DNA from: Prorocentrum cordatum
Taxonomy: Eukaryota
Length of the DNA stretch: 57,627 nt
Assembly: GCA_963575745.1 (NCBI GenBank)
Contig: CAUYUJ010000010.1
Location: forward strand, 62,001-119,627
Direction: 5' to 3'
Shown here: piece after piece, positions 932 to 52,510 of the stretch
Position numbering within the stretch: position 1 is the stretch's first letter
Layout: each line of letters begins with the position of its first letter
Translations under genes and position numbers: made by a program
The notes under the pieces: model-generated
Told to the model about the DNA's origin: nothing
What the model saw: only the letters and a program-made list of their open reading frames with translations
Databases searched by the model: none

Positions 932-1538
932 TAAAGACCTTCGCCGGGCCTCGCGGCCGTCGAAAAACGACTCAGGATGAAAAACCGGTCCTGGGGAATG
1001 GGTCGAGACTTCCAGGGACCCCGTATGGAAAAAAACACGACGAAGAGGATCTCGGGGCCCTTGGCGCGCAGAGCGCTCCAGGCGCCGGAGGCGCCGCCGG
1101 GGGGGCCCTGCACAATGGTTTTGTGCTTATGCCGCTTGCCCTCGTTCAGGGGGGGGACAGAACTCCCACCCCGACACGTCGATTAGCGAATTGGCCGTTT
1201 TCGGTTCGCGAGAGGGCGTCGCGGCCGTCATTTTTGCGGGTCCAGGTCCGTCGGTTTCGGCCCCAGGCCGTCTTCACCAAAGGGAGGTTTACTGAAGCGA
1301 GGTTTGCCCACCGCCGATGATTCCGCTTGCCCTTGTTCGACGAGTGCCGAGGGGTGGCCGGCGCGGCGGCGTGGTGCAGAGGCCGTGGGGGAGGTCTCGC
1401 CGCCGATGGCCGAGCCCGAGGCTCGCGCCACGAGGGGAGGCGAATAGCAGGAAGCTGCAGGATCGAGGATGGAGGTGTTTGGGCTTTCTCCTCCTCCTCC
1501 TCCTCCTCCTCATTTAGGTATATGTGTTGCGTGTTTTT

Positions 1539-2010
1539 GTTGCTAAGGCCTTACGGCCAGTGCCGCCGACCCTGGATACCTCGGCCCTCGAGGGTGACGG
1601 GATGCGTGATAAGACGTCGGAGGTAAATGAAGACGTGGCGGAGGAGGATGCGAAGGAGGAGGAGGAGGAGGAGGAGGAGGAGGAGGAGGAAGGGGAGGAG
1701 GAGGAAGGGGAGGAGGAGGAGGAGGAGGAGGAGGAGGAGGAGGAGGAGGAGGAGGAGGAGGAGGAGGAGGGGGAGGGAGACGGGGAGAGGGAGGGAGAGG
1801 GTCGCCCCGGGGGGTGCGTATCTGCCCACCCCCCACCCACACCCCCCCCAACCCCGGGTGGAGAGGGTAGGGAGGGGCTTCGCCACGACAACGAATTCCT
1901 TCTGTTTCGTGTTCGATTTCCTTTTATTTCGGGCGACGACGATGACGATGACGACGACGACGACGACGGTGATCCACGCAAGACGACGACACTGGGATGC
2001 GTCTTCCACA
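1539..2010 (-). mobile_element. Hairpin-ended, (GAG)n-carrying non-autonomous element, copy 1
   Basis: GGCC-TTAC-GGCC-AGT-GCCGCCGACCCT at 1547-1573, then (GAG)n. Flanked by the direct duplication taggta(t/g)atgtgttgcgtg at 1515-1533 and 2011-2029. Orientation is inferred. Confidence 0.6.
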
Positions 2011-2081
2011 TAGGTAGATGTGTTGCGTGCTTGTACTTCTTGGGTCCACAATCCGCCTGTAGAGGGACATGCCCGACCGAA
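2011..2081. mobile_element. MITE family A, right end only
   Basis: atccgcctgtagagggacatgcccgaccgaa matches the right TIR of the complete copies. The following 8 nt (tattagtt) fit nnnTAnnn. Confidence 0.7.
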
Positions 2082-2754
2082 TATTAGTTTTGGACGGGCT
2101 CGTGGCAGATTCCAGCACGGTTTTGGACGGGCCTGGGAGGCGTCACGAAAGCGCATTCTGAGCGCAATGGTTCCAGAGGATCTCCGCCATTTTCGGCCTC
2201 CCAGGCCCCAAGGCCGTTCGAGAGCAACCCAAAATGCGAATCTGGCTTGGAGAAAGCAAAGGTCGACAACCCGTTTGCTCCATGCCAGAATGGGAATCCC
2301 CAGGCGGCACACGAGGCAGGCATGTGTGTGTGTGTGTGCGGTATGGGCCGCCGCGGCACGTTGCTGCCTGCGTCCCTCCGCCGCCGTGCGGCATGCAGGT
2401 CTCCGCGCTGGAGGGTGTTCTGGCCACCCTTAGTGGGTCCCATACCTCCTCGCGTCGCGAGAAAAAAAAACGACGGCAGGTGTTGGCATTCGTTCGCCCT
2501 CTGGGGCTTTTGCCGGACCCCGTGACTGTCCATAACCTCGTGACGTGCCCAACCCATTGCATCAAGTGGCCAGATGAGTTGACCCACGTCGTTCTGGATG
2601 GTGACACTGTGAGAACCGTCATTCGCTGCGCGGGCTGCACTGGAGATGCCTGCCCGTTGCACGACCCACGGGACCTGCGCCGGCCGCGCGAGCAGGGGCC
2701 GGGGACCGGCGCGGAAGCGGCACGAGGAGTCGAGGTGCCGAGGCTCCGTCAGGC

Positions 2755-3100
2755 GTCGCTCCGCTGGACCCCAAGTGGCGACAGCTTCGCAGATCGCAGC
2801 CACCCCAGGGATGGCGAGGACGAATCTGAGTCTCCCCAGGACGTCGCCCCGCTGGCCCCGCCAACCTGCAGCCTTCCAAAACAGTGGCGACAGCGCCACG
2901 CTTCGCAACCTCTCCCCAAGGGATGGCGCGGACTGATCCGAGTCTCCGCTGGACCCCCCCCAGCAGTTTCGTAGATCGCAGCCCCCCGGGGACGGCGAGG
3001 TCTTGTAAAGGTCTGCGTGGGACGTCACTCCGCTGGAGCCCCCAGCAGCCCTCGAAAGTGGCGACAGTTTCGCAGTTCGCAGCCCCCTGGGGATGGCGTG
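2755..3100. repeat. Degenerate ~90-bp tandem repeat, ~4 units
   Basis: Recurring ccgctgg...gtggcgacag(c/t)ttcgcag..cgcagcc..gggatggcg units starting near 2760, 2850, 2945 and 3030. Confidence 0.7.
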
Positions 3101-3827
3101 GGCAAGCCAAGCAAACGGCAGGAGAGGAGAGGAGGGGAGAGAGGAGGAGAGAAACAGGAGGAGGGAAGAGAGGAGAAGGGAGGCGGGAGAAGGAGATGGA
3201 GACCGCCGGCAGGGGCAAGCCAAGTAGACAGCAGGAGAGGGAGAAGAGGACGAGGGAAGAGAGGAAGGAGGCGGGAAGGAGGGAGGAAGGGGACGCGATG
3301 GAGGTTGGGAGAGAGCAGGAGCGGAGAGGAGGAGGAGGAGGAGGAGGAGGAGGAGAAGGAGGAGGAGGGAGTCGTGAGAAGGAGCAGGTCGCGACCGCAG
3401 TGCTCTATTCCAAACGAGACCCCAACGCAGGAGGGTGGGGAAAAACGACTCGGGACGAAACACCGACTCCCATGGAAAAGCCCAGAGTTCTTGGGCTCCA
3501 CGTCGAACCAGAACACACGTGGCGTACGGGCTTCCCCAGGGGCCGGCCTCTTTCGCGCGCACGCGCCGTGGGAGAAGTGTTCTTGTTTGCCCGCCGCGAG
3601 TGGCTCGCGGCGAGAGAGCTCTCCAGTCGTACTTCTTAGGGCTCCCCAGGCCCCGGCACCCCCGTCTTCAGGAGGACGCTGACCAGGCATCTGTGCCGAG
3701 CCTGGCAAGACCGGCGCATGCACCGATCCCGCCGAGGATGGGCCTGGGCTGGATCGGCACAGGCATACGGTTGCTTGGCGCCCTCCGAGCCTCTCCCACG
3801 GGCCCCCCTCTCTTGCTGAGCCCCGAG

Positions 3828-4020
3828 GAGGCTGGGCTGGCAGCGCTGGCGCTTCCGCTGTCGCTGCCGTACCTGCGCGTGCCGGAACTCCTGCGGTGCT
3901 GCCAGGCGGCGCCGCGGTGGCGGGGCGAGGTCGAGTCTTGGCGCGACAGTCACGCCCACAGGGCGGGCGCCGGCGCCACGGCCCTCCACGCGGCGCTCGA
4001 CGCAGCAGACCCTTCCCGGG
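3828..4020 (+). CDS. Candidate exon with an F-box-like motif followed by an ankyrin-like ATALHAA; 3' boundary uncertain
   Basis: AG acceptor at 3826-3827, then in-frame EAGLAALALPLSLPYLRVPELLRCCQAAPRWRGE...GATALHAALD. LPYLxxxELLRxxQxxxxW resembles the F-box consensus. Confidence 0.4.
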
Positions 4021-4044
4021 AGCTCCCCGCTGTGCATGCCGACT

Positions 4045-4262
4045 GTCGACCGGGGGCCCCAGACGGTGCGGTGACCACACCGTGTGGTGGGGCGACCGCA
4101 CGGTGTTGGGACCTGCGGCGTTCTCCGAGGGCGCTTCGGGCGACTGGGGCCTGCCAGGGAACCCAAAGCCGTGCGGTGGCGGATCGTGCGGTGGTGTCTT
4201 CGGGGATTCCGAGGTCAGCACACGGTCTGACACCGCACCGTTTCGGGACCCCCAAGCCCAGG
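4045..4262. repeat. Dispersed repeat, paralog of 39215-39435
   Basis: Shared ggtgacc(a/g)caccgtg, gcacggt..tgggac, cgttctccgagg, gcgactggggc and gttcgaggtca/ccgaggtca blocks in the same order. Confidence 0.7.
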
Positions 4263-5103
4263 CCGCCGACGTCATGGTTTTTTATAAACACAAAATCATG
4301 ACGTACAACTCTAGAGGTCTGGACCCCTTCCTGAGGACTGACTTTTCAACCCGAGCCTCTCTGTTCACAGCCTCGCGGCTCAGTGAGGGCCGCCGACGGC
4401 TTCGGATCGTCAACAATTTCCCGTCCCTTGTTTGTCACCACGCGAGGGGGTCTGAGAGTCAACCCCGCCCCCGGGGGCGCCATCGAACGGCCGCGGGCCC
4501 TGGCCCGTGGAGCGGCGATCGCACCAGCAGGGGCGGGCGCGAGCGCCGCGGCAGTCCCCACGCGGCGCTCCTCGGCGCAGCAGCCGCCCTCCACCAGGGG
4601 GCGTCGGCTGTACACCCACACCGCTCCTGGCCAGGCCGACCCTGGGCCACGGATCGGTGCGTGCCCAGGCGTGCTCGTGTCGTGGCACAAAAAAAAGGCG
4701 GGCGGTTCTTGGCAGTTTTCGGCCCCCGGGGTCCCTCGCCAGGCCCTGGGGTGGGCCAAGAGCGGGGCCGGGGCTCGGGACGGCAAGCACCGCCGCTAAT
4801 CAAGCACCTCCTCTTTCGTTCAGAAAAGAAACCGCTGGTAAACCGCTGGTTTGTTTAACTGTGCCTGCATCTCGGGGGTGTTCATGGGAAGTTTCAGGCC
4901 AAACATGGCTCTCTATTCCATAATGGTCTCTGACCGCTCCTGGGGAGAGGGGCCGGACCTGCGAGGGGCCCGTGTCGAAACAAGGCAAGACATCCCACGT
5001 CTGGGTATAGGCCTCCCTCGCCAGCCCAGGAGGGCGTCTGCAGCCGACCGAGGTGTGAGGTCGAGGTCGGCTCGGGGAGGGTACCTTCATGTTCTTGGTG
5101 CTT

Positions 5104-5150
5104 GTGGAAAAACACACACCAACAAGCACACACAAAACACACACACACGC

Positions 5151-5181
<31 letters not shown>

Positions 5182-5284
5182 TACTCATACTCATACACAT
5201 ACACACACATACACACAAAAAACACACACATACACACACGTATGTGTTTTTGTTATGTGTTTGTGTGTGTGAGTGTTTTCCCAC
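5104..5284. repeat. CA-rich foldback (imperfect inverted repeat)
   Basis: gtggaaaaacacacac...(CATACA)n... mirrored by ...gtgtgtgagtgttttcccac. Confidence 0.6.
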
Positions 5285-5393
5285 GGATTTGATTGTGCCT
5301 CCTGGGGGAGGGTGCCCTCGACTGCTCTTCAGTGTGGCCGGCGGAGGGTCTCATGTTCTTGAAGGGTGGTTTCCTGGCCCAGGCCTGACTGTA

Positions 5394-5569
5394 CAGTCGG
5401 GGCGCTGAATAAGGAACCCTTTTCGTTGGGGAGGGGCTCGGTGTTCCTTGATTGTTTTACAGTTTGCCTTGGATTTTCCTGAGGTTCTCCATGGGAAGTC
5501 GAAGTTTAACTGATGGGAAAAGGGGGCCTCGTTCCTTATTTGGGGTTCGTTAGGTCATAGCCCCGACTG
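5394..5569. mobile_element. MITE family B (Tc1/mariner-type), complete copy
   Basis: TA|CAGTCGGGGC ... GCCCCGACTG|TA. Internal inverted aataaggaac/gttccttatt. Homologous copies at 31802 and 32141. Confidence 0.85.
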
Positions 5570-6508
5570 TACCCGGATCCCCGGCCCAAGGTGAGCCCAA
5601 CCAGGATCGGCGCAGCAGTACTGTCAAGGGTTTGTTCTTTGTTCGGTCGGTCCGGTCATGTCGTGGTCGGTTTCGCTCTCGGTCGATTCGGTTCGGTGCG
5701 GCCCGTTGTGTTGTGCCGTCGCTGCGTCGCTGCGGCCTGTCAGTTTCGGTGGGTTTCGGTGTCGCTGTTGGTTCTGTCAGGTTTCCGTTATGCTGTCGCC
5801 GTGGGTGGCCTCGTTGTACAGTGGAAACCCATGCCAAGAAACACCCTGCTTGCATCCAGGGTGCCCTGGGTTTCCTGGGTTTCGATGGTTTTGCTACGGG
5901 AAGCGTGACGTTCCCACACCTAAAACCAAAGGACGTTCTGGAGTCTCAGGGTTGGGTTTCTTGTGGAAGGTTTCTTGCGGTCGGGCCCCTACTGTACATG
6001 CTTGACCCAGGGCGCCACCGAGAGACCAGGGCCAGCAGGCTTGGAAGGGCTCCGGCCCGCGGAGGCACACTCTGGGCGTCGGAGCCTCCCAGGACCGACC
6101 TGGCGCGAAACAACTTCTGCACGCAATCACGGCTTGAGAGCTCTTAATTGTTCGTGATGCATGTTTTGTTTACCTTTTTTCGGGGGGTCCAGGAACGTGG
6201 CCCTCTTCCCCAAGCCATGCCCCCCTGAAGAAAGCTCCCAAGAAGAAAGAAAGGATCCCGAGGGAAAGGGTCTTGCGGTCTTCGCCACCTTCGGCCTCTC
6301 AGGGCTCCCCTCCCAGACCCAGGACTGCTAGAGACCGACTCGGCATAAGAGGCCACGGAGCAGGGACAGATGGGGGAGGAGAGGCGACGCATGGAGGTGG
6401 GCCGCAAGACCATGCTCTGGGCAAGGGAGCCTGTCCGCACCACCGCTGGGAGAACCAATTGGCCCCGCCTTCAAACATCCTCCCCAGGTGCGCCCCCCGC
6501 AGGAAAAC

Positions 6509-6680
6509 TTGGCGGCGCGCACAAGGGGGGTAGGGGGAGGGGGGAGGGCTTCTTAGAAGGAGGCTGCTTCTTAGAAGGCGCCGGCCTTACATCTACAAAG
6601 AAGGCCCGTGGCGTCTAAGAAGCAGGGGTGCTTCTAAGAAGCCCTCCCCCCTCCCCCCACCCCCCTCTGCGCGTGGCTGA
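6509..6680. mobile_element. Palindromic ~170-bp repeat (family C) with repeated TTCTnAGAAG motifs
   Basis: Near-identical to 46372-46540 and to the reverse complement of 47926-48095. The G-rich left arm mirrors the C-rich right arm. Confidence 0.8.
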
Positions 6681-6699
6681 AAAACGGGGTCGATGGCGC

Positions 6700-6856
6700 G
6701 GACATGGATCCAGGGGGCGTGGATTGGCGACGGGTCCCGTTTCCACTGGAAGTCGCGGATTTCCGCCGCCAGCGAGGCGGCCCGGGCCGCATGCTGGGGA
6801 GGGCACCTCCCCCGATCCATGGATCTGGCGACCGCGCGCCAAATCCATGGATCGCG
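6700..6856. repeat. Dispersed repeat family D
   Basis: catggat..agggggcgtggatt(g/a)gcgacgggtcccgtttcca...gagggcacctccccc...ccgcgcgccaaa.cca.ggatcgc, also at ~47430-47585 and ~53581-53746. Confidence 0.85.
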
Positions 6857-7824
6857 TCAATTCTCCTGTTGTGATGGCACTTGATTCGATGCCAATCTCA
6901 AATGTTTGACTGGTTGCCATTGATCAAGTCTACAGCTTTGCAAGGACACAGTCGACAAAATGAGAAGCCTCATTTGTCCTGGCAGCTGTTGTTGAGTTGT
7001 TCACATTCTGAAAACGCTTGATCAGAACATTCTCTACCCTACACCTTAGGCGATGCTTGAGAAAACTTGAGTTTTCGGCCAGAGTCTCGATTGTTCTTAA
7101 CGTTTCAATGTAAACCCCAAGTTTTGAATAGAAATGCTGGGTTTTTTATTCCAGATCTGAGACTATGAATTTCTGAACCCATGATTTCTTAAGCATTTCG
7201 CAGGGTGTAAGCCAAGCACAGAATGATGCACCATTGGCTATCTCTTCCTTGGCCCGGGAAAGCGGGGTCGACGGCGCGGACCCTCGCGCGCGAGCTGCCT
7301 GCCCTAAGAGCGGCCGCGCTGGCCGCCCTCTTCTCCCAGGGCGGCGCGGCAGGCCGGCGGCCCACGCAAGCCACGGCGCAGGGTCGCTCCAGCCAGCCCG
7401 CGTGGCAAGGAAGGGCATCCTTCCCCAGGCGACCCACTGCTCATCTCTAGGTAGTCGAAAAGTCTTTGACCTTTTTGGGGGGCCAAGATCCTGTCGTGTC
7501 TAATGGTTCTATCCGGGGCCTCTTCCTGGCCACTGGGGGCCAGAACAATCAGAAACGAGCAGAATTAGGAATGAGCACGATTAGAAGTGAACGACGTGTA
7601 CCCTTTCATCCTTGCCCCTTCGGCCCGTCCTTAGCGACTTTCGCTGGCCAGCCTACGTCGAAAAACAGCGTGTACCCTCAGAGGTCTGGATCCCTTCCCA
7701 GGGACCGGCTTCTCATCCGAGTCGTTTTCGAATTGTCCTGGGGCCCGTTGAGGCCCCCCAGAGGCCGAAGACGGCGAAAAGTCGTCCGACGTGTTTTTTG
7801 TGACGACGCGAGGGGGATCTAGGG

Positions 7825-7991
7825 TTAAGTCGGGCGTGTCCCTCTACAGGAGCAATATTCAGAAATATTCCCCAAAAAATTGAATGGGGACGACTCTTAT
7901 GTATTTTTGACTACTTTGGAGTTTTGTTTTGGTTGGTATGTTTTCAATTTGTCCTCCAGAATCCTCCTGTAGGAGGACGTGCCCGACCGGA
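7825..7991. mobile_element. MITE family A, complete
   Basis: TIRs ttaagtcgggcgtgtccctctacagg / cctgtaggaggacgtgcccgaccgga around an AT-rich core. Perfect 8-bp TSD atctaggg at 7817-7824 and 7992-7999. Confidence 0.9.
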
Positions 7992-8376
7992 ATCTAGGGA
8001 CGGTGCGGGGCGGTCCTGGCGATGACGGCGGCGGTACGCGACGGGGCTCTCCCGGTGGTCCGCCCCAGACCCGCCGCACGAGCGCCGCGCGCGCGGCGGC
8101 GGCGGCGGGCTCGCGGAGCTGGGGATGGGACGAAAGGGCACCAGCACCGCAGCTCCCTGGACCTCTCCTGGGGTTTTGATGTTCCAAAACCTACTTGAGC
8201 CTTGACTGCCAGACAAACCGAGCATCAAGAAAGTACTAAGGCTTGAGGGTGTTCACGTGTCGGGCCCTGGGAGGCGATGCTCGTTCGACGATGTTTCGAT
8301 ACTCCTCTTGGTGCTCAAAGTTGCCTCTGGGATGCCGTCCTTAAGTACGACGGGAACAGCATAATCCTGGGGTATT

Positions 8377-8495
8377 GGAGAGGCCTGACGGCCAGCGCCG
8401 CCGACCCTGATCGAAAGGGCTAGGAGTGGGGGGAGGAAGCGGAGGATGATGAGGAGGAGGGGGAGGAGGAGGAGGAGGAGGAGAAGAAGGAGGAG
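8377..8495 (-). mobile_element. Hairpin-ended, (GAG)n-carrying element, copy 2
   Basis: GGCC-TGAC-GGCC-AGC-GCCGCCGACCCT at 8382-8408, then GAG-rich sequence. Flanked by cctgggg(t/c)att at 8366-8376 and 8496-8506. Confidence 0.6.
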
Positions 8496-8749
8496 CCTGG
8501 GGCATTTTCAGACCTTCATTTTTCGGGCGTCGCGTGAGGGTGGGGCGACAGCTGCGGCGACGCCACAGAGCGGGGGCCGCCTGCGCGGGCACTCGGCGCG
8601 CGAGCTCCCCGCGCGAGGCCGCGCGCGAGCGCCCCCGTCTCCGATGCAGCATGCCGCGCCGGCGGGGCGCGTGAGCCACCGCATGGGGTCGCTATGCCAT
8701 CTCGCGCCAGACCCGCTTTTGACCGCCGCTCACATGCAGCGGGGAGAGA

Positions 8750-9152
8750 CTGCGGGAAGAAAAAACACACACTGTGGGACAAATCACACACACACACAGT
8801 GGGGAAAAACACAGCTGTGGGAAAACAAACACACACACACACCAACACAACACAACACAACACAACACAACACAACACAACACAACACAACACAACACAA
8901 CACAACACAACACAACACAACACAACACAACACAACACAACACAACACAACACAACACAACACACACACACACTGTGTGTGTGCTGTTCCCCCCAAAACA
9001 CACTGTTGGAAAAACACACACAGTGAACAAAAAACACAGCTGTGGGAAACAACACACACACACAGTGGGAATCAACACAGTTGTGTGTGTTTCCCCCAAA
9101 ACACACTGTGTTTTTGTACATGTTTTCCCACATTGTGTTTTTGTCCCACAGG
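8750..9152. repeat. CA-rich foldback element containing a (CAACA)n microsatellite
   Basis: ctgtggga(c/a)aaa-cacac units on the left, inverted gtgtttt(t/g)tcccaca units on the right. Pure (CAACA)n at ~8843-8962. Confidence 0.75.
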
Positions 9153-9345
9153 TGCGCCCGCTGATCGGCCCCCAGTAAGCAGCGCCCCAGGGACGAACAT
9201 GTCATCCCGACGGGCCCAGGGGGGGAGACCTGGGAGCCCGAAAGGGGGCTCGCAAGCATTCGGGACCCGCTTCCTTGGGGACCCTGCTGCCTCGTAGCGA
9301 CCTCCTTGGGGGCTCTGTCGCTTCGTAGCGACCTCCCCCTTTGAG

Positions 9346-9624
9346 GAGCACGTCCTCGAGCTCGGCTGGCGCGCGCCGGCGCTGCTGCGGGCGCGCGACT
9401 GCGCGGGGCGCCCGCCGCTGCTGCGGGCGGCGCAGCTCGGCGCCGCGCCGCTGGTGGCGGCTCTGCTGTGCGCGCGGGCGGACTCCGCCGCGCGCGGCGG
9501 CCACGGCTGGACGGCGCTGCACGCCGCCGCGGCGTGCGGCCACGTCGAGGCCTGCGGCGTGCTGCTGGCCGCGCGCGCGGACGCGGGCGCGCGGACGACG
9601 GACCGGGGCCAGGGCCGGGGAAAG
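9346..9624 (+). CDS. Ankyrin-repeat protein, internal exon
   Basis: AG|GAG acceptor, 93 open codons: ...ARDCAGRPPLLRAAQLGAAPLVAALLCARADSAARGGHGWTALHAAAACGHVEACGVLLAARADAGART..., i.e. two clear ankyrin repeats. Ends at an AAG|GC donor in phase 0. Confidence 0.85.
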
Positions 9625-10039
9625 GCGTCCCCCACCTCCTCCTCGGACCACCGCTGGGCTTGCTAAGGGGATGGGGGGGGGTACTAAGTAGATGTGATGG
9701 GCCTGCTGTCCACCACCACCACCATACGTTGGAGGGGGAGGGGGTCCTCCTCCTGCTCCTCCTCATCCTCCTCCTCCTCCTCGTCCTCCTCCTCCTTCTC
9801 CTCCTCCTCCTCGCCCTCCTCCTCCTCGTCCTGCACCTCCTTCCCCCCTCCAGCTTATGGTGGTGGTGGTGGTGGTGGAAAACAGGCCCATCCGGATGCC
9901 AAGTTGGATTGCGCCCAGGGGACACCTAGCTTATCAGTGGGTTGCAGCTGGAGTCCGAGCCAGGTGCCGAGGTAGGTGATGACGACGATGTCGGCTGCGC
10001 TGAGGATAATGTTGCCAGCATAGCTCTTGGCTGCGCTGG

Positions 10040-13080: not shown

Positions 13081-13122
<42 letters not shown>

Positions 13123-13575: not shown

Positions 13576-13635
<60 letters not shown>

Positions 13636-13915
13636 CATGATCATGATCATGATCATGATCATGATCATGATCATGATCATGATGGTGATGATGATGGTGA
13701 TGGTGATGGTGATGGTGATTGTGATGCTGATGCTGATGCTGATGCTGATGCTGATGCTGATGATGGTGATGGTGATGATGATGATGATGCTGATGATGAT
13801 GATGATGCTGATGCTGATGCTGATGCTGATGCTGCTGATGCTGATGCTGATGCTGAGTGTGCTGATGCTGATGCTGATGCTGATGCTGATGATGCTGCTG
13901 ATGATGATGGTGATA

Positions 13916-13969
<54 letters not shown>

Positions 13970-14345
13970 CTGATACAGACGATGATGATAATGATGGTGA
14001 CGGTGATGGTGATGAGGATGCTGGTCATGCTCATGATGATGGTGATGATGCTGATGATGATGCTGATGATGCTCATGATGTTGATGATGATGCTGGATAC
14101 GATGATGCTGCTGATGATGATGATGATGATGATGATGATGGTGGTGGCGGTGGTGATGATGATGATGATGTTGTTGATGATGTTTATGATTATGCTGGTT
14201 GGTGATGATGATGGTGATTATGATGGTGGTGATGATGCTGGTGATGCTGATACAGATGATGATGATGCTGATGATGATGGTGATGATGATGATCATGATC
14301 ACGATCATGATGATGATGCTGATGAAGATGATGATGCTGATGATA
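13576..14345. repeat. Compound (GAT)n microsatellite with GCT/GGT/CAT variants
   Basis: Directly visible. It explains the poly-D/M/H/I ORFs. Confidence 0.97.
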
Positions 14346-16575: not shown

Positions 16576-16587
16576 GGGCGCGCCCAG

Positions 16588-39435: not shown

Positions 39436-39672
39436 GAGAAGGGGCCCGGACGGGACCAGGAAGTCAGAGGAGGAAGTTCTCCCTTTTTGTTGGGCCTCCT
39501 GGGCTGTATCGTCGCCACCGTTGGATTCGCCTCGAAGTGTGGGTCAGAACGCACCCCTCGAGGGGGGGGGGGGCAGCGGCCGCCGCCGCCGCAGGCCTCA
39601 CGCCACGCTGGAGCCGCCTGGGGGCGCCGAGGTGTCCCGGCGCCGGCTCCGGCCAGCAGAGAGACTCTATAG

Positions 39673-40675
39673 TTCAGTCGGGCCTGTCCCTTTGCAGGAG
39701 CAACATCCAAAAATGGTCAACAAAAACACTATGGGACGATTCTATAGGCTTACGCCACATCCGCCGACCCCTACATAAAACGAGTGCGCCTCCAGGACTG
39801 CGTTTCACGAGGCTTGTCCGAATCACGACACGGCGCTCGACATCGTTCCTGTTGCTTCGTTGCTGTTATCGTACCTCTTGGTGTTTTTTGGTGGCCTTTT
39901 GGTGACATCTTGGCCTGTCTGTAAGCCATGTCCGGCCGCCTCGAGGCATCTTGGGCCAAGTTTTGGAGCCTCTTGGCGGCCTCCTGGGGGCTTCTTGGAG
40001 GCCTGTGAGGTTGTTATTGGGGCAGGCTGGGGGCGTCTTGGGGCCGAAGGCTTGAACAGGTGCCCTCTGGACTCCCTCTTGGAGCCGTCTGGGGGCCCTC
40101 TTGGGCTGTCTTTGGGGCTTCGTAGGCTGTTTTTGGACTCTCTTCGACCCCTCTTGGGGGCCCCTTGGGCCGTTCGGGGGCGACATTGAAGGTTTCTTTG
40201 CCCATCTTGGACGTTGTGACAGCCGAAAAGGCGAGCATGCGAAAAATGCAGTTTTTTCCCAAGGGAATGAGGCGATTTCTGTTTCTTGGGACCCTCTTTG
40301 GACGCATCTTGGGAGCTTGTTGGGGCGCCTTGCCAGCTTCGGGGGCCGTCTGAAGGCCATCGTGAGCGTCACAAGGAGCGATATTTCGGCGATTCGTTGC
40401 CCTCTGGGAGCGTCTGGGGAGCGTTTTGATGCCTTCTTGGCCTGCTTTGGAGCACTCCGCTCCCCCATTGCGCGTTCGGTCCGGGGTCGGGCCGGGCCTG
40501 GAGGGGGTTAATTTGCCGGTTTGGGGTCCTTGGGGCGGAGGATTATGGGGGAAATCATCTCACACGCCTAGAGACCCACAAGGAGTCGGCGGATTTTAAA
40601 GCTATGTTCCGGTATTTTTAGAATGTGTTGATTTGTCATCCAAAAACCCCCTGTATGAGGACACGCCCGGCTTAA
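39673..40675. mobile_element. MITE family A split by an ~850-bp insertion
   Basis: Left TIR ttcagtcgggcctgtccctttgcagg, right TIR cctgtatgaggacacgcccggcttaa. TSD ctctatag / ctttatag (7/8). Confidence 0.85.
39742..40595 (-). mobile_element. Hairpin-ended element, apparently full-length copy with subterminal inverted repeat
   Basis: GATT-ctata-GGC-TTAC-GCC-ac-ATCCGCCGAC (39738-39768) and inverted GTCGGCGGAT-T (40585-40595). The interior is cttggg-rich repeat. Removing it restores a normal MITE-A core. Confidence 0.65.
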
Positions 40676-41444
40676 CTTTATAGGCCTCCCAGATGGGATC
40701 AGAGTAGTTGGGGTCGGAGGATCGCGCCGCATCGCCGATGCATCGCCAATGCGGCACCATGCGGAGCCCGACTTTCTTCGCGCGGACGTCGCCTATGCAT
40801 CGCCGGCGTCGCCGATGCATCGCCATCTGGGGGCGGCGGCGGCGCCGAGGTGTCCCGGCGCCGGCTCCGGGCGCTGGGTCTTGTAGGATCCTGCAGGGCC
40901 AGGGTTGCATTGACCCAGTTCTGGGCGCAGGATCCTGCAGGACCCTGCGAGGCCTGCCTGACCCGGGCTTGGATTGGCCCGGGTCAGAGCACTCCCGAGG
41001 CGGGAGGAAGGGGCTCGGACGGGGTCAGGAAAAAGATCAGTCCGTTCCCCTTCGCGCTGTGAAAAATCACGTCGGGGGGTTTTGGCTATATCAGGCCTCC
41101 GAGGACCCTTCCTGGCCTCGGGACCGGCAAAAAACAACTCAGGATGAAAAACTGGTCCTGGTGAAGGGGTCGAGACTTTTGGGGTTCGACGCTGCGAAAA
41201 GTCACGACGTCAGGGGTCTGGGGACGGGGCCAGGAAGAGGATAAATCCGTTCCGGAGCGCTCTGGAACGCTCGGCTTGGGGACGGGGCCAGGAAGAGGAT
41301 ACATCCGCTCCAGAGCGTTCCGGAACGCTCTCCGAGGGTCCGGGAATGCTCTGAGAGGGCCGCACGCTGCCCGAGCCATCGACTGCAGAGCCGTCGGATC
41401 TCAGAGGTTTCGATTCGTCCTCACCCGAATGCATCCTCTCAGGA

Positions 41445-44110: not shown

Positions 44111-45231
44111 ACGGGCCCGGTTGGGTCTGACACTACGCAGGCTATCTATACACAAGCCTTGTTACGTCTAGCGCTGGCGAGTGCGAGCCGTCTCCGTGAG
44201 CTGGCGGCACAGGGGGGGGGGTTCTCCCTCGACGTCCTCCTCCTTGGAGTGCTGCCGTTGCTTCCCTCCCTTCCGGCACCCTTCCGCCCGCTCCGATGTG
44301 CTGGAAACCCGTTCCTGGACGGAGTCCCCGGGGACTCTCGCCGATCTGCGGCTCAGGACCGACGCGCTTCAGGACCCGAGCTCAAGCCACGGGCGAAGCC
44401 TCGCGCGCACTTCTGCAGTCTTGCAGGACTTCGTTGGCCGTCTGCCTTGGCAATCTGAGACGTGCCGCCGCCCCCCTCGAGCGCGCACGCGGCCGCGCCG
44501 CAGGGCGGGCTGGGGCCCGAGCACTCGGCCGCACCATCAGAGGCCGGGAGCCGAGTGAAGCTGCCCAGGAAGGCCCTTCAGGGGCCAACGCCTTGCCACT
44601 CGAGGGCCAGCTTCGTGCCCGAGGTCTTCCTCCCTCCCTGCCCTCGTCCCCCCTTCCCCTGTCCTCTACCTCCCTTCTCCTCGTGCTCCTCCTCCCTCCG
44701 CCTCCGTCCTCCTGCCCCTGCTTCTCCTCCTCTCTCCTCCTCCTCCTCCTCCTCCTCCTCCTCCTCCTCCTCCTCCTCCTCCTCCTCCTCCTCCTCCTCC
44801 CACTCCTGCCTCCTCCTCCTCCTCTCTCCTCCTCATCCTCCTCTCCTCCTCCTGCATCCTCCTCCTCTCCTCGTCTCCTCCTCCTCCTCCTCCTCCTCCC
44901 CTCCCTCCTCCTCTCCTCCTCCTCTCCTCCTCCTCCCTCCTCCTCCTCATCGTCCTCCTCCTCCTCCTCCTCCTCCTCCTCGTTGTCTTCCTCCTCCTCC
45001 TCCTCCTGCTCCTCCTCCTCCTGCTGTTGCTCCTTCTCCCCCTGTTCCTGCTCCGGCCTCCTCCTTCCTCCTCCTCCTCCTCCTCCTCCTCCTCGTTCTC
45101 CATTCCCTTCCTTGTAGGTCATTCCTCTGTGTATCACCCCGTGGCTGGTTGCAAGGGCGGGCCCGGCGTTTCGCTTGGGACTTCCGTAACATGTATGATC
45201 CTGAAGCTTACGAGTTGGCAACAGCTTCACT

Positions 45232-45710
45232 GACGGAGGGCGTGCAGTTTTCAAAATGTGTATCTCGCCTTCGCGCCGCGCACATTCGTCTCAAAAAAAT
45301 ACCAGAGCTTTACGGATTAAGGGCGGGTCGTTTTCAGAATGTGGATCCCGCCCCAGCGCCGTCCACATTCTTTTTCAACATTTTCCAAAGCTTCACGGAT
45401 TGAGGGCGGGTCGTTTTCAAAATGTGGTTCTCGCCCCAGCGCCGCCCAAATTCTTTGTAGACAGTATCAAGAGCTTCCCGGATTGAGGGCGGGTGGTTTT
45501 CAAAATGTGGCTCTCGCTCCACCGCCGCGCACATTCGTTACACAAATTGGCAGAGGTTCACAGTTTGACTGAGGGCGGTTCATTTATACAATGTGCTCTC
45601 GCCTTATCGCCGCGCTCACTCGTTGCAAACAATTTCAAGGGCTTCACCGAGTGAGGGCGGGTGGCTTCCAAAATATGCGTCTCGCCGTAGCGCCGCGCAC
45701 ACTCGTTTTT
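45232..45710. repeat. Tandem repeat, ~83-bp unit x6
   Basis: gattgagggcgggt(c/g)gttttcaaaatgtgg.tctcgcc...cgccgcgcacattc recurs at ~45235, 45315, 45398, 45480, 45567 and 45650. Confidence 0.9.
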
Positions 45711-46371: not shown

Positions 46372-48095
46372 TTGGCGGCGCGCACAAGGGGGTAGGGGGA
46401 GGGGGGAAGGCTTCTGAGAAGGAGGCTGCTTCTCAGAAGGCGCCGGCCCTACGTCTGCAAAGAAGGCCCGCGCCTTCTAAGAAGCAGGGGTGCTTCTAAG
46501 AAGCCCTCCCCCTCCCCCCACCCCCCTCTGCGCGTGGCTGATCTTGGGCCTCCCTGAGGCCGTCCTGGAGGTCTGCTGAGCCGCCTCGGGGTCTCCTGTG
46601 CCTCTGATGGGGCCTCGCTGGGCCGTCACGAGAAGCCCGCGGGGCTTTCTGCCCGCATAGCAGGGGTGCTTCTCAGAAGCCCTCCCCCCTCCCCCCTCTG
46701 CGCGTGGCTGGAGGGTGGAGGGACGAGGCCAGAGGAGCCGCACGCGCGACGACTTCCGGCCCCCGAGCGGGCGGCCCGCAAGGGGGGGGGGGGGAGCGCG
46801 GCCGGCTCGGCCCGCGTGACCGCCCAAGGCGCGCGGAAGGAGGAAAGGTAGGACGGAGACGAGAGACTTCTCCTCCTCCTCCTCCTCCCTCCTCCTCCTC
46901 CTCCTCCTCCTCCATCCTCCTCCCTCCTCCTCCCTCCTCCTCCTACCCCTCCTCCTCCTCCTCATCCTCCTCCTCCTCCTCCTCCTGCTCGTCCTCCTCC
47001 TCCTCCTCCTCCTCCTCCTCCTCATCATCATCATCATCCTCCTCCTCCTCCTCCTCCCTATCTTCCTATTCCTCCCCATCCTCCTCCTCCTGATCCGCCT
47101 CCTCCCCTTCGAGACCCCCACCAAATTACCACCCCAGTGGGGGATGCACCCCTCGAATCGCGAAGGGAACGACCTGTATCCCCATTTCGGGAGTAGATCG
47201 GCCAGTGGGGCCCAGGCCACGCCGCTGGGGATGGGGATCGGTTGAACGATACTCATGATGAGGATGAGGATTGGGGGGGGCGGGGGAGGACGGGGAGAAG
47301 GACGAGGACGAGGACGAGGAGGGAGGACCGGGAGGGAGGGCCAGGAGGAGGAGAAAAGTCCTGCGTAAGCCCAGGATGCATCAACGATGCTGCAACACCC
47401 TCCTGTCCCAAGTCCCCCCTTTCAGGCGATCGCAAACATGGATCAAGGGGGCGTGGATTAGCGACGGGTCCCGTTTCCATGGAACATCGCAGATTCCCGC
47501 CGCCGAACGAGGTGGCACCGGCCGTTTTTTGGGGGAGGGCACCTCCCCCAGATTTGGCGACCGCGCGCCAAATCCACGGATCGCTAATCCATGCTTGCGC
47601 GCCCCCGACAGGAGGAGGGGGGAAGTCCAGAGTAAACCCAAGATGCATCAACGATGCTGCAACACACCCTCCCGTCCCACGTCCCCTCTTTTTTAGATTA
47701 CATTTGATGTGTACAATTCATTTGTATAAAAAAACTGCACGCTACAAGCCTTGCTTCCCACCGCCAGAAGCGCCCCTTTGAAAATACCAGCACCTCGTGG
47801 GCCTGCTATGCGGGTAGAAAGCCCCGCGGGCTTCTCGTGACGGCCCAGCGAGGCCCCATCAGAGGCACAAGAGACCCCGAGGCGGCTCAACAGACCTCCA
47901 GGACGGCCTCAGGGAGGCCCAAGATCAGCCACGCGCAGAGGGGGGTGGGGGGAGGGGGGACGGCTTCTTAGGAGCACCCCTGCTTCTTAAAAGGCGCGGG
48001 CCTTATCTGTAGATGTAAGGCCGGCGGCTTCTGAGAAGCAGCCTCCTTTTAAGAAGCCTCCCCCCTCCCCCCACCCCCCTTGTGCGCCCCGCCAA
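46372..48095. mobile_element. Foldback element with ~290-bp terminal inverted repeats
   Basis: 46372-46664 is the reverse complement of 47802-48095. Flanks gaagaggat / caagaggac (7/9). Confidence 0.7.
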
Positions 48096-48352
48096 CAAGA
48101 GGACCCCAAGACGGCCCAAGAGCGTTCAAAGCGAGCCAAGAAGGTCTCAAGACGGCCAGGGGGGGCCTCAAGACGCTGCAAGAGGCTCCCAAAATGGACC
48201 CCCGCATGGTGAACATCGCCCCGCTCCTTTCGGAAAACGTACACGTTTAGCACATTCGCTCCTTTGGTCTGATCAGCGTGCAAGACGGCCCAAGAGGCCC
48301 CCAATACCGCCCCAAGACGGCCAAGAGGTCCCTAAGACGGCCCAAGTGGGCT

Positions 48353-48376
48353 TCCGTAGCCATTTTGGCTCTCAAG
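48353..48376 (+). other. Dinoflagellate spliced-leader (DinoSL) relic
   Basis: TCCGTAGCCATTTTGGCT(CT)CAAG equals the canonical DCCGTAGCCATTTTGGCTCAAG plus a 2-nt CT insertion. It lies 60 nt upstream of the ATG. Confidence 0.93.
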
Positions 48377-48436
48377 GTTGTCAGCTAGTTGGCCTCGGTC
48401 TGTGCAGAGAAGCTCTCGCCGCCTTAGGCTCTGAGC

Positions 48437-48913
48437 ATGTCTAGCGCCCCGTACCGTGAGATGGGCGAGAGCGACAAGAGTGACCGTTGGGGGGACTTCG
48501 GGCGAGACTTCGGGGCCCTCGTACTGCGCGTCGTCGTCAGCCTGACGCTGGTGCACCACGGGCTTCAGAAGTTCCACAACCCTGAGGGCTTCTCCGCAGG
48601 GGTCGTGGCCAAGAGCTTCCCGTCGCTGCCCGGGACACCGCTCCTCTGGACGTACGCGGCGGCTGGTATGGAAATCGTGGCCCCAGTCCTCCTCGCCTGC
48701 GGCCTGTTTGCGAGGTTGGCGTCGTTCGGTCTCCTGGTAACCATGAGCTTTGCCAACGCCTTCCACTTCATGACCACGGGCATGGAGGGGTATCCTCTGG
48801 GTGTGCCTGCTGCCGGCGCGTACGCTTTTGAACCGTCCATGTTGTGCGGAGCCGTCTTCTTCTATTTCATGGTGGCGGGCCCTGGGAAGTGGTCGCTGAC
48901 TCCCAAATATTAG
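48437..48913 (+). CDS. DoxX-family membrane protein, intronless retrocopy (158 aa)
   Basis: Intact ATG..TAG. LVLRV...HHGLQKF...EIVAPVLLACGLFARLAS...TM..A..H...E...GPGKWSL is the DoxX/YphA-like 4-TM pattern. SL relic at 5', A6 at 49077-49082, TSD caagtgggcttc. Confidence 0.9.
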   Translation: MSSAPYREMGESDKSDRWGDFGRDFGALVLRVVVSLTLVHHGLQKFHNPEGFSAGVVAKSFPSLPGTPLLWTYAAAGMEIVAPVLLACGLFARLASFGLLVTMSFANAFHFMTTGMEGYPLGVPAAGAYAFEPSMLCGAVFFYFMVAGPGKWSLTPKY

Positions 48914-50224
48914 GCGGCTGGTCTTTTGCAGTGAGCGCTCCCTGGCTGGTCGTGTCGACGAGCCTGGCAGGCCTCAATTTTTCGTGCAGCCTTGGGCTGG
49001 ACTGCCGCCTTGGTTTGTTTCTGCGGCCCCACCAAGTCCTCACAGTGTGCGCGTGTTCATCCCGTCGCAGTTGGACAAAAAACAAGTGGGCTTCAAGACG
49101 GGTCAAGAGAGCCCCAAGAAACCCAAGAGAGGCCCCTGGCCCCTGAGGGTTCCAAAAGGTTCCCAAGAGAGCCCCAAGAAGGCCACAGGAGGTCCCCAAG
49201 AGGGCCCCGAGATGCCCCCAAGACGGCCCAAAGAGCCTTCAAAGGACCCCCTGAAAGGCACAGAAATGCAATACGCAGTGATCTTCGCACGGATGCTTGC
49301 TGGATTCTTGTATGTCGCACCAAAGCCGCACCAAAGCCTTGACACCAGCAGGGTTCCAAGACACTACGCCAGCGACATCGCGCCCTCACAAAACAGACGC
49401 GCTTTCCCTTTCTGGTTGGGCCGTCTTGGGACCCTCTTAGGCCGTTTGGGTGCCCTCTTGGGGGCTTCTTGGGGCGATCTTGGGGGCCACGTTGGCCTTT
49501 TTTGAGCGCTAGAAGCCCGAAACGGCGACAACGCTAAAATTTCGCTGTCTGCCTTTTGGAGCTCGGTTGGGCCGTCTTGTAGCTCTTTTGCTTTTGGGCG
49601 ACCCGGGGCCATCTTGGACCGTCTTGGGGGTCCCTTGAGGCCCTCTTGGCCCGTTTTGAGGCCCTGTCGGCTCCGAGAAAGTCGCGCGAGAATGCTGGAA
49701 ACGCCCCTGGAAATTCAATAAGTTTGGGACTGGGCCTTGTAATGCGAATTCGCCCAAGTCTGAGGACGGAAGGTTGAGGGAACATGAGGACATTCCAAGT
49801 CATGCCTCGCGGCGCACGATGTCGGATGAATTGTAGGAGCTTGAATGCCAACGAAGTCGCAGGCGAAAGCAAATGTTTGAAAAAGAGCCGCCGTCCGTCG
49901 GCGCAGTTGTTGGGTCTGTCATGTTTCGGCAGCATGGGCTTGAAGGAAGTCCACGCCGAGAGCTCGATCTTGAACAGGGTTCGCATTCATTAGTGTTCAG
50001 TGGTGGCAGTATTACGTGCAATGTCGATCCTTGTCCTTTGTCGTAAAGTTTGCATGGGCGGGGGGGAACAATTGAAAGCGACTTGCCTACCATCCGATGC
50101 GCAGCTGGAACTTTCAATTGTGACGGCCGCCAAAGTGAGGAAGTCGCGAACGAGGCTCCCAGACTGCCCATCTAACGCTCTTGGTGGTGCGACGGAAAGG
50201 ATGAGAGGTGGCCAGAGAGTAGTG

Positions 50225-50382
50225 TTCAGTCGGGCCTGTCCCTCTACCGAAGGAATCTGCAAACATAGTCTAAAAAATAGTATTGGGGCTGTTTTTGACT
50301 ATTTTTGCTATGTAGGGGACATGTTTAGAGTATTTTTATTTTTCGCTCAAAATCCCCATGTAGGGGGACACGCCCGACCTAT
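50225..50382. mobile_element. MITE family A, complete
   Basis: ttcagtcgggcctgtccctctac...gtagggggacacgcccgacctat. TSD gagtagtg / gagtagtt (7/8). Confidence 0.9.
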
Positions 50383-50445
50383 GAGTAGTTACCGCCACCA
50401 CTCATTCGCCCCTCCCTCCGCCCCTCGCCCCGTCCCCAATGTCCG

Positions 50446-50668
50446 CTCCCCTCGCCCCTGTCTCTCGCCTCTCTCCACCACACTCCCCACCTCCTCGCAG
50501 CCGCCCGACTGGGCGTCGCACTTCAGGACTGAGAAGCGACGCGCTGACTTGGGATCCACTCCCCTCGCCCCTGTCTCTCGCCCATCTCCGCCGCACTCCC
50601 CACCTCCTCGCAGCCCGCCGACTGGGCGTCGCATTCCAGGACTGAGAAGCGACGCGCTGACTTTGGAC
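50446..50668. repeat. Tandem duplication, ~112-bp unit x2
   Basis: ctcccctcgcccctgtctctcgcc...gactgggcgtcgca.t.caggactgagaagcgacgcgctgactt.gga occurs twice. Confidence 0.9.
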
Positions 50669-51616
50669 CAGCAGAGCAGAACGGCCGACAGACAACGACC
50701 GCGAGCGCCGAGCATGCCGTGTCCAGTGTCTGTGGTGACCCTACAGCGTCGGACGGCCTTCGCCTTCTGTGTGTCCATGCCCGCATTGTTGACGTGGCTT
50801 GACACGCGGCCTTCTTCCTCGGGAGACGGACTGTATACCCCACCACCACGTTCCCTCCCTCGCCAGCCAGGTGACGTCACCGTGGCAAATGATAGCAAAG
50901 GACGCGAGCGGCCACCCAAGTTCCACCCCGCGTTGCAGGCTGTGGACTGCGCAGGGCAAGTCGGCGGCCAAAGAAGAGCACCCAACTTGGTGGTTGGGCA
51001 GGCGAGGCCCCCACCACCACGCATCCACGGGCGCACTTCGGGCCAGCTCCTGGCGAGAGCGGCGCCCCCAGCCTACCCCAGGAGCCGACACGCGCAAGGG
51101 TCTAGCCCCCGACCCAATGCCGTGGAGGCTTGGTGGCGGTGTATACCCCCCCCTCCAGACTCAGGAAGAGTCGTGCGACACACCCCAGAAGCCACGCGAC
51201 CGGCTCCAAGATCGGGGGAATCCAAGAGGGGGGGTGAGGACCATGATATCTTGGTGCTCTAGCCTCAGCGCCGACCACATCCCTAAGTGGGTATTGTGCT
51301 GCCGCCACAATCACATGCTGGGACGCTTATGGTTTGCATCTTGGAGGGGTTGTCCGGAGATTTGTTTGATCCGATTTGCTCATTGAACATACGGTGGGGG
51401 CGTTGGTTAAGAAATGCGCCCAGGAGGCTGCAGACCCTGGATAATTCCTTATCTGATGAGGGCAGCGGTGACATCCATGGCCCAGCTTCGATGGGAATTT
51501 GTCTCATGAATTGTTGCATGCACGGGTTCGCCCTCGAAGCGTTAAAAAAAAATAATGCCCCAACCGCAGTAGGGGTTTGTGGATATCATGGTTGGGGCCA
51601 CCATCTTTCCCAGATT

Positions 51617-51794
51617 GTGAGGGCCTGACGGCCGGCGCCGCCGACCCTGAAAGACATCGACAACGACCAGGAGGGGGAGGATCAGGAGAAGGAGGAGGAG
51701 GAGGAGGAGGAGGAGGAGGAGGAGGAGGAGGAAGAGGCGAGGAGGAGGAGGAGAGGAAGGAGGATGCGGAGGAGGACTCCCTTCCGGGACCCCC
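51617..51794 (-). mobile_element. Hairpin-ended, (GAG)n-carrying element, copy 4
   Basis: GGCC-TGAC-GGCC-GGC-GCCGCCGACCCT at 51622-51648, then (GAG)n. Flanked by ccacc(a/g)tctttcccagatt at 51598-51616 and 51795-51813. Confidence 0.7.
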
Positions 51795-52510
51795 CCACCG
51801 TCTTTCCCAGATTTCGCGGCCCCCTCTTCCTCTTTCAATGCGTTCCGCGCACACGCTTCGGGCCACGGTGTGCGCACCTCCCCCCCCCCAGTCTTCTGGG
51901 CGCCCTCGCTGGTGGACCCGAAAGCAGGCACGCGGAGAGCCGGAGAAAACATCGGGGACTCCTCCTCCCTCCTCCCTCCCCCCTCCCCTCTCCCCCCTCC
52001 TCCCTCCTCCCTCCTCCCTCCTCCCTCTTCCCTCCTGCTCCTCCTCCTCCCCTCCCCTTTCCTCCTCCTCCTCCTCCTCTCCTCCTCCTCCTCCTCCTCG
52101 TCCTCCTCCTCCTCCTTCCTCCTCCTCCTCATCATCCTCCTCATCCTCATCCTCATCCTTCTCCTCATCCTCATCCTGCTCCTCCGCCTCTTCCTCCTCT
52201 CCTGCTCTCCTCCTCCTCCTCCTCCCCCTCCTCCTCCTCCTTCTCCTCCTCCTCCTCCTCGTCCTCCTCCTCCTCCTCCTCTCCCTCCTCCTCCTTCTCC
52301 TCCTCCTCCTCCTCATCATCATCATCCTCTCTTTCCTGCGGCGGCTTGCGGCCCCTAGCCGCTGCGGCCGCTCGCCGGCCGCCGCCGCCTCGGCGCAGCC
52401 GCCCGCTCGCGACGCCGCTGCGCCGGCCGGCATGTGTCCACCGCGCGCGCCGCCGCCGCGACGCGGTCCTCCTTGGGGCGCTTCGCGCCAGGAGAGCCGC
52501 CCCCCGTGAG

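Follow-up and report, generated by a model that had tools for sequence, protein, structure and literature searches.

A conserved hairpin-bearing end of short non-coding repeats in dinoflagellate DNA and its possible Helentron-type layout

The closest described counterparts of the repeats considered here are the HINE/DINE-1 elements of the Helitron2/Helentron group. In HINEs, the arms of the 12-15 bp subterminal repeats are unequally placed: the 5' arm is 2-4 nt away from its terminus and the 3' arm 38-60 bp away from the other, which also has a palindrome of 5-10 bp at a distance of 8-35 bp (PMC4067079). Microsatellites or tandem repeats occupy the centre of some copies, insertion is into TT or T-rich sequence, the target site is left unmodified by Helentrons and HINEs, and the subterminal repeats are conserved between families sharing less than 70% identity (PMC4067079). 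Helitron2 elements have asymmetric terminal repeats with hairpins at both termini (PMC5148889). Here we analyse a window of 57,627 bases (~61% G+C) from Prorocentrum cordatum (assembly GCA_963575745.1, contig CAUYUJ010000010.1, positions 62,001 to 119,627), in which a composite hairpin motif recurs at four sites. We tentatively read this motif, with a confidence that falls somewhat short of even, as a conserved terminus, bearing a hairpin, of mobile elements that are short, non-coding and shared by dinoflagellates, have a Helentron-type layout and insert by target priming. What we observe is a conserved end, a second end, an inverted repeat connecting the two, one verified insertion with its duplication, and the multicopy status of the sequence.

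Two further systems bear on the comparison. In the CR1/L2-type stringent pairs of long and short interspersed nuclear elements (LINEs and SINEs), a stem-loop 3' tail of ~35 nt is common to otherwise unrelated elements, and these pairs are characterized by target duplications of variable length, 5' truncation and microhomology at the 3' junction. The introner elements of dinoflagellates have been called with an inverted repeat within ~30 nt of both ends (PMC10666404, PMC7789003), and their classes have symmetric ends and short fixed direct repeats of 3-5, 4 or 8 nt (PMC7789003, PMC10666404, bioRxiv 10.1101/2020.10.14.339549). Within the text that our literature search returned, we found no paper describing Helentron-type elements in dinoflagellates, and none of the papers listed for words of the motif itself dealt with repeats or dinoflagellates.

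The hairpin module and the insertions in the window

A first-pass annotation of the window had reported the same hairpin geometry at positions 1547, 8382, 51622 and 39747, here called W1, W2, W3 and W4, respectively, and all four sites read as it stated: written as a regular expression and applied to the whole window, the composite motif matches four times on the plus strand and never on the minus strand. W1, W2 and W3 have in common a block of 36-40 nt, (T)ATTGTARA-GGCCTKACGGCC-RRY-GCCGCCGACCC, with the core GGCCTKACGGCC-RGY-GCCGCCGACCCTG. W4 is a diverged copy, GGCTTACGCC-ACA-TCCGCCGACCCC, whose stem has lost one base on each side (GGC-TTAC-GCC) and which nevertheless retains the hairpin. 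On the plus strand, the modules occupy positions 1537-1576 in W1 (GTTGCTAA-GGCCTTACGGCC-AGT-GCCGCCGACCCTG; profile E 5e-12, covariance model 52.4 bits), 8372-8411 in W2 (9e-13, 57.1 bits) and 51612-51651 in W3 (1.6e-11, 54.5 bits). A profile hidden Markov model of the block finds matches at 1538, 8373 and 51613 and misses W4; the covariance model gives W4 38.6 bits, but W4 was part of its training set, and the next match in the window has an E value of 0.086. Because no further profile or covariance match has an E value below 0.08, the window, as judged by these searches, contains four module copies and no more.

It is the composite motif alone, and not the hairpin word, that is special. Allowing up to one mismatch, the 11-mer GCCGCCGACCC has 14 matches in the window against 3.8 expected, a number reached in none of 100 shuffles, whereas the hairpin word by itself, with up to two mismatches, is not enriched there (16 matches against 20.2 expected). 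The ATT at the edge of the module is part of the conserved block, being present in 12 of the 13 aligned copies (W1 has GTT), and it is preceded by a T in seven of the nine distinct loci found in metagenomes, which are described below.

The best-resolved insertion is W3. Its inserted segment of 178 nt (51617-51794, plus strand) consists of the module, a 22-nt spacer, a (GAG)n tract and a ragged end, ...GGGACCCCC, and is bracketed by a 19-bp target duplication whose left copy (CCACCATCTTTCCCAGATT, 51598-51616) and right copy (51795-51813) are identical at 18 of 19 positions. The left flank (51570-51616) aligns to 29286-29333 with a score of 44, whereas 200 shuffles scored no higher than 32; for the right flank (51807-51908), the matching stretch is 29327-29451. 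Since both flanks align to this paralog, which lies on the plus strand at 29286-29451, the paralog is continuous across the insertion point (...CCAGATT/TCATTG, the slash marking the junction here and below). The empty site that the first-pass annotation had suspected for this copy is thereby borne out, and W3 is confirmed as an insertion of 178 bp that duplicated 19 bp of its target.

The inserted segment of W1 is longer, 474 nt (1537-2010, plus strand), and comprises, in this order, the module, 66 nt, a (GAG)n tract (1640-1803), a G/C-rich unique stretch, a (GAC)n tract and a ragged right end; self-BLAST detected no other similar sequence in the window. It lies between the two copies of a duplication, 1515-1536 (TAGGTATATGTGTTGCGTGTTT) and 2011-2032, which agree at 20 of 22 positions. 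For W2, the putative inserted segment of 119 nt (8377-8495, plus strand) contains the module and a GAG-rich tract and stops within the purine tract; it is flanked by CCTGGGGTATT (8366-8376) and CCTGGGGCATT (8496-8506), identical at 10 of 11 positions. To gauge these duplications, the identical search was run at 5000 random non-simple positions. A score of 18/19 is reached at 0.98% of the control positions, and the 14/19 scored by the W2 pair at 16.5% of them. Of the flanking duplications claimed earlier, those of W1 and W3 are thus significant, and the 11-bp duplication of W2 is not significant alone. W4 has no adjoining duplication (score 11 in the same search). The related claim that duplications end in ATT is correct for two copies but needs rewording: because ATT belongs to the conserved block, among W1-W3 there are two copies in which it is common to the element and the duplication.

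The junctions of the three one-ended copies all fall at TT/T or TT/G (ATT/T, ATT/T and YTT/G), and the opposite end is ragged in all three. Past the module, alignment reveals no homology among W1, W2 and W3 beyond purine richness, and no right-end module of the kind described in the next section was found near them. As had been noticed in the first pass, these copies do run into (GAG)n: in 3/3 strong copies, a perfect plus-strand GAG tract (>=15 nt) is reached 68-107 nt past the hairpin, while one occurs at that distance from 6.6% of random positions (p ~3e-4 for the association). The further idea that the family is the vehicle seeding the GAG tracts is not supported, since the motif adjoins only three of the window's 32 GAG-rich regions (19 plus-strand and 13 minus-strand). 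The family carries GAG tracts in three copies and yet explains few of those in the genome.

The second end and copies at other loci

A search of metagenome contigs for exact GGCCTKACGGCCNNNGCCGCCGACCC returned 14 loci, and in 10 of them (L002, L003, L005, L006 and L009-L014) the match extends leftward to (T)ATTGTARA. These represent nine distinct module-bearing loci, L011 being the same locus as L014, on contigs of 38-65% G+C. The remaining four (L001, L004, L007 and L008) were rejected as chance matches without flanking conservation. Between any two of the ten loci, or one of them and the window, similarity covers only 27-41 nt and stops abruptly on the left, and the flanks are unrelated in every locus. 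The core pattern has no matches among viral contigs (viral_contigs), nor has the extended pattern any in prokaryotic genomes (genome_contigs, one genome each of 185,579 species).

Besides the module, a second conserved end, TCTCACACGCC..GTCGGCGGATTT, closes W4 and two metagenome copies, L002 and L005. W4 is a complete two-ended element of ~860 bp (39738-40600, plus strand), with its left module (ATTCTATA-GGCTTACGCC-ACA-TCCGCCGACCCC) at 39738-39772 and its right-end module (TCTCACACGCC, 16 nt, GTCGGCGGATTTTAA), which came out of an inverted-arm search and recurs in L002 and L005, at 40558-40600. The right ends of L002 and L005 read TCTCACACGCC-GAC-GGGTCGGCGG-AGTAAT and TCTCACACGCC-AGGTCGGCGG-ATTTAC, and their elements measure ~575 bp and ~985 bp, respectively. 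The only other 10-mer common to three loci, TCTCACACGC(C), lies 544-959 nt to the right of the left module in L002, L005 and W4. The two ends are connected by a subterminal inverted repeat of 13-14 nt: in W4 its two 14-nt arms (39759-39772 and 40581-40594) show 93% complementarity, and in L002 and L005 they read CCGCCGACC(C) and GGGTCGGCGG. In these three two-ended copies the repeat is asymmetric. At the short end, the arm lies 3-6 nt from the terminus, whose bases are A/T-rich; at the long end, it starts ~21 nt in (34 nt from the end when read on the minus strand), and the 12-nt palindrome GGCC-TKAC-GGCC, 8 nt from the edge, stands between edge and arm. Each of the three right ends can form a CGCC/GGCG hairpin that has one arm inside the subterminal repeat, with loops of different lengths (fold z-scores of -1.65, -3.15 and -2.76).

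The interiors are repetitive and differ from one another. That of W4 contains CTTGG repeats with a period of 11 nt (39876-40179), and (AT)n, a GTT-rich array and palindromic tandem repeats occur in L012, L003 and L002, respectively. For the metagenome copies without a second end, no convincing duplication was found beside the module, the nearest case being L012 (13/14 identical at a 24-nt offset). In L009, an open reading frame (ORF) for a HAD-type hydrolase (172-765, Pfam E 8e-15) is followed by 226 nt and then by the module (992-1026) at the contig end; the element lies downstream of a gene and probably broke the assembly.

Two observations were made next to W4. A palindrome-containing stretch of ~30 nt (GCGCCGAGGTGTCCCGGCGCCGGCTCCGG) is present at both 39625-39653 and 40842-40870, 85 nt before and 240 nt after the element, and 40707-40750 (GGGGTCGGAGGATCGCGCCGCATCGCC...), ~110 nt to its right, resembles a decayed inverted module that the covariance model does not detect.

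Public sequencing runs were compared with positions 1000-8800 of the window, the runs listed containing a small share of it each and none of them being on record as RNA. Four runs have exact window pieces (1353-1476 and 7444-7585 in X1, 2270-2420 and 3520-4004 in X2, 3822-4013 in X9), which places the same organism, or one very close to it, in these runs. W1 is covered from 1546 to 1639 by a single exact piece of 94 nt with a depth of 57.8 in X1 and 46 in X3, the other listed pieces having depths of 2-8. One contig of X2 matches 1543-1639 with four differences and then continues into unlike sequence, and four X2 contigs diverge to the left of 1540, their loose ends agreeing mutually at only 0.57. 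The depth and the diverging contigs lead us to conclude that W1-type sequence is multicopy and occurs at further loci, the module marking its left edge. No joints across W1 or W2 were seen in run contigs among the joints listed, where uncovered stretches carry no weight as evidence. The empty site, the copies at other loci in the runs and the 10 extended metagenome matches out of 14 agree with the earlier proposal that the family is mobile and dispersed, one of its ends being fixed and formed by the hairpin. The genomes of dinoflagellates are very large, full of repeats and poorly annotated, and most of their transposon families have yet to be characterised; an end of 36 nt that is near-identical across hosts of 38-65% G+C can serve as a probe for a census of the family, for its enzyme partner, and for dating or tracing transfers between species.

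Mechanism and competing explanations

According to the reading that we tentatively favour, the long end of the element is made up of (T)ATTGTARA, the GGCC-TKAC-GGCC hairpin and the 13-nt repeat arm RAT-GCCGCCGACCC, and the short end of TCTCACACGCC, the CGCC/GGCG hairpin, the inverted arm GGGTCGGCGGAT and 3-6 A/T-rich bases, with a centre of host-like simple or tandem repeats, (GAG)n in this genome. A protein encoded elsewhere may recognise the repeat arm and the hairpin. The GAG-carrying copies W1-W3 would be one-ended products, their hairpin end attached precisely where a T-run was nicked behind ATT (ATT/T); there, the target ATT could pair with the AAT that terminates the other strand of the element. 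Copying would proceed inward from the hairpin end and halt at variable points, and a second nick 11-22 bp upstream would give rise to the flanking duplication. Duplications, a ragged far end and microhomology, here at ATT, are what target-primed insertion typically leaves behind; which enzyme acts, whether DNA or RNA is the template and in what order the nicks are made belong to the inferred part of the reading. The mixture of hallmarks proposed in the first-pass annotation is real, in that a second end and a subterminal inverted repeat give a HINE-type layout, and the duplications and ragged end are those of target-primed insertion.

Several points weigh against this reading. No autonomous partner (RT/APE or Rep/helicase), for which a search had been proposed, turned up: Pfam detected no Rep, helicase, APE or reverse transcriptase (RT) domain in the 190 ORFs of the window and the 69 ORFs of nine of the 14 metagenome loci. 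Two of the three one-ended copies have duplications of 19-22 bp, compared with none under the HINE rule, and the T-run lies on the strand that has the main hairpin at its 5' side, which mirrors the orientation published for these elements. The one-ended junctions observed number only three, and the boundaries of the two-ended elements were set where conservation stops and rest on that conservation only. The left GGCC hairpin has no stability advantage over shuffles (z ~-0.2), and an alternative CGGC/GCCG hairpin competes with it. In W4, L002 and L005, a direct repeat of 10-18 nt lies 4-37 nt outside the modules, which the model does not explain; such repeats occur in 0.9%, 0.3% and 3.3% of controls, respectively, with the controls taken from the window only and the L002 repeat being CT-rich. 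Finally, copy number can be judged only roughly from contig depth.

The strongest competitor is a SINE-like or LINE-tail retroposon family, which we regard as possible but doubtful. The minus-strand module (...GGGTCGGCGGC-RYC-GGCCGTMAGGCC-TYTACAAT) would then be the 3' tail used by a stringent LINE RT in RNA-templated target-primed reverse transcription (TPRT). A corollary, to which we assign a similarly modest likelihood, is that W1-W3 are 5'-truncated copies and the two-ended elements full-length ones whose 5' end pairs with the tail by chance. The variable duplications of 11-22 bp (the 11-bp one being weak), one of them verified by an empty site, fit such a family, and so do the pairing of a fixed with a ragged end in 3/3 copies and the microhomology (AAT or AA) that the tail shares with the beginning of the duplication. 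The relict leader described below illustrates that this genome has active retroposition, which is widespread in dinoflagellates (PMC5585692). Retroposed copies are, however, expected to be colinear, and W1 has in common with W2 and W3 only the module and purine richness, and with W4 the module only. There is no poly(A) or terminal microsatellite, and no RT or APE in the 259 ORFs. The distal direct repeats around the two-ended copies would also fit retroposition, but they do not abut the tail, contrary to TPRT. We know of no role in SINEs for the 13-nt inverted arm, the hairpins at two ends or the central repeats.

A retroposon can also be imagined in the opposite direction, the copies deriving from a plus-strand RNA that starts at the module, by transcription start or 5' processing, with the fixed end arising where the complementary DNA runs up to the 5' terminus of that RNA and the ragged end from variable internal priming; we give this little chance. 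Dinoflagellate retrocopies do reach the 5' end of the mRNA, as relict leaders testify, duplications are present, and an X2 contig has W1-type sequence within a longer piece. Four X2 contigs, however, extend upstream of the module into unlike sequence, and in L009 the module is preceded by an ORF and 226 nt, so that the module is internal to longer sequences and is not an RNA start. Moreover, the ragged end lacks poly(A), and the second end and the inverted repeat would be left unexplained. We also considered and rejected the notion of a spliced-leader exon with retroposed mRNAs: the bases after GACCC vary, there is no downstream Pfam ORF and no poly(A), and the module is internal.

Smaller still is the probability of a cut-and-paste miniature inverted-repeat transposable element or introner, that is, an element with terminal inverted repeats that is moved by a DDE transposase and spliced as an intron. 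Like introner calls (PMC10666404, PMC7789003), the two-ended copies have an inverted repeat within ~30 nt of both ends; GT directly follows ATT (module positions 4-5) in 8 of 13 modules, and the W1 duplication holds AG/GT. This is offset by duplications that vary within the family (11, 19 and 22 bp), by unequal ends, by the one-endedness of three of the four window copies, and by the absence of GT from 5 of 13 modules, including three of the four in the window.

That the motif is not mobile at all, but a conserved regulatory or RNA motif or the first exon of an acidic (poly-Glu) protein family, is most improbable, since the very tight conservation across species and the frame CCG CCG ACC CTG leading into GAG codons in W1 and W3 are countered by the paralogous empty site and duplication, which denote insertion, by a TGA inside the hairpin in that frame (W2 and W3), by the entry of W2 into AGG (Arg) codons, and by the lack of any Rfam match together with flanks that are unrelated in every locus. 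The window has no Rfam match at the gathering score, and none falls on the modules at E <=1; the only sub-threshold matches are miRNA-like and concern palindromes within L002. A coding-exon family was rejected because of the stop codon within the hairpin and the differing frames, and the idea of a hammerhead or HDV-like ribozyme found no support.

Returning to the reading that we favour, a more far-reaching version of it, a Helentron-type element that integrates throughout dinoflagellates via an endonuclease nick and target-primed copying from the hairpin end, we consider unlikely, though less so than the last three alternatives. If true, LINE-like duplications of 11-22 bp and inward-truncated copies would come from an element of the rolling-circle class. 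Such an element would use the integration step of the retrotransposon that gave Helentrons their APE, providing a mechanistic link between the classes, and the conserved transposon end would be a genome-wide marker for dinoflagellates.

Host, neighbouring features and comparison with known systems

A relict spliced leader, TCCGTAGCCATTTTGGCTC-TC-AAG, is located at 48344-48377, ~60 nt upstream of the start of a DoxX ORF. It corresponds to the published dinoflagellate leader, DCCGUAGCCAUUUUGGCUCAAG (PMC5585692), with a 2-nt insertion, and its presence identifies the window as dinoflagellate DNA. A 16-mer of the leader, searched with up to two edits, was found only in the window and in L003 (0/300 shuffles), so that at least one metagenome copy, of 45% G+C, is also from a dinoflagellate. 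The highest mean G+C among the genomes compared in PMC10666404 is 59.7%. Relict leaders mark retroposed dinoflagellate genes, and retroposition is widespread in these organisms (PMC5585692); the intron-less DoxX ORF behind the relict leader (48344-48910) looks like such a gene. Pfam found only this DoxX domain (48428-48910, E 9e-17) and an ankyrin-repeat exon (9298-9663, plus strand, E 4e-8; ~800 nt downstream of W2) in the ORFs of the window. Repeats of 10-11 nt of the type GGCCCAAGAGG occur directly upstream of the leader (48281-48343) and at 49162-49235; they are also present, inverted, inside W4 (39876-40179), and similar GCCAAAAGG arrays exist in L010 and L012. They may be decayed 3' halves of the leader or a separate repeat.

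The window, which has a run of 100 N at 832-931, is crowded with trinucleotide arrays, among them very long (GAT)n-type arrays at 13576-14344 (~770 nt) and 55545-56393 (~850 nt). Longer tandem arrays are found at 57047-57469 (period 73), 45223-45708 (83), 20279-21082 (~150) and 50442-50667 (113 nt). Self-BLAST also revealed a dispersed repeat family of ~160 nt (69-78% identity) with members in both orientations at 7825-7988, 17519-17699, 31572-31725, 50220-50381, 53359-53530 and 54509-54650; joints of X2 run contigs fall inside this repeat (7848/7861 to 7960). In addition, there are repeat pairs of 86-93% identity, one of them inverted: 47423-47866 with 53577-54013, 46408-46664 with 48059-47802, 5436-5574 with 32149-32287, and 6702-6855 with 53590-53746.

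Compared with the stringent LINE/SINE pairs, the repeats described here have a similar fixed structured end, duplications of variable length, truncation and junction microhomology. They differ in being without a terminal microsatellite or poly(A), in the absence of an RT from the 259 ORFs, in truncated copies that are not colinear, and in the matching inverted arm and hairpin at the other end.

With introner elements, they have in common that they are short, non-autonomous dinoflagellate repeats, plentiful in a dinoflagellate genome of high G+C, and that inverted repeats of 8-20 nt lie close to their two ends. Their duplications of 11-22 bp and their asymmetric ends set them apart.

The comparison with HINE/DINE-1 extends furthest. 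In the no-duplication rule the two part company, given the 19 bp of W3 with its empty site and the 20/22 of W1, whereas the T-rich target agrees. Further differences are that the one-ended copies lack the short end and that, with respect to the main hairpin, the T-run sits on the other strand. Should the layout and the long duplications be products of one mechanism, the rules by which no duplication denotes a rolling circle and a variable duplication a retroposon would fail here. On the side of likeness, both are short non-coding elements with paired subterminal inverted repeats (13-14 nt here) and with asymmetric arms, here 3-6 nt from the short end and ~21 nt from the long end with the palindrome in between. 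Both have a short inverted repeat with one arm nested in the subterminal repeat, central repeats (here in W1-W3, W4, L002, L003 and L012) and T-rich insertion points. Read on the minus strand, the elements match the published layout in each structural item, with an arm at 34 nt from the long end as compared with the published 38-60 bp, and in both cases the termini are conserved while the interiors differ.

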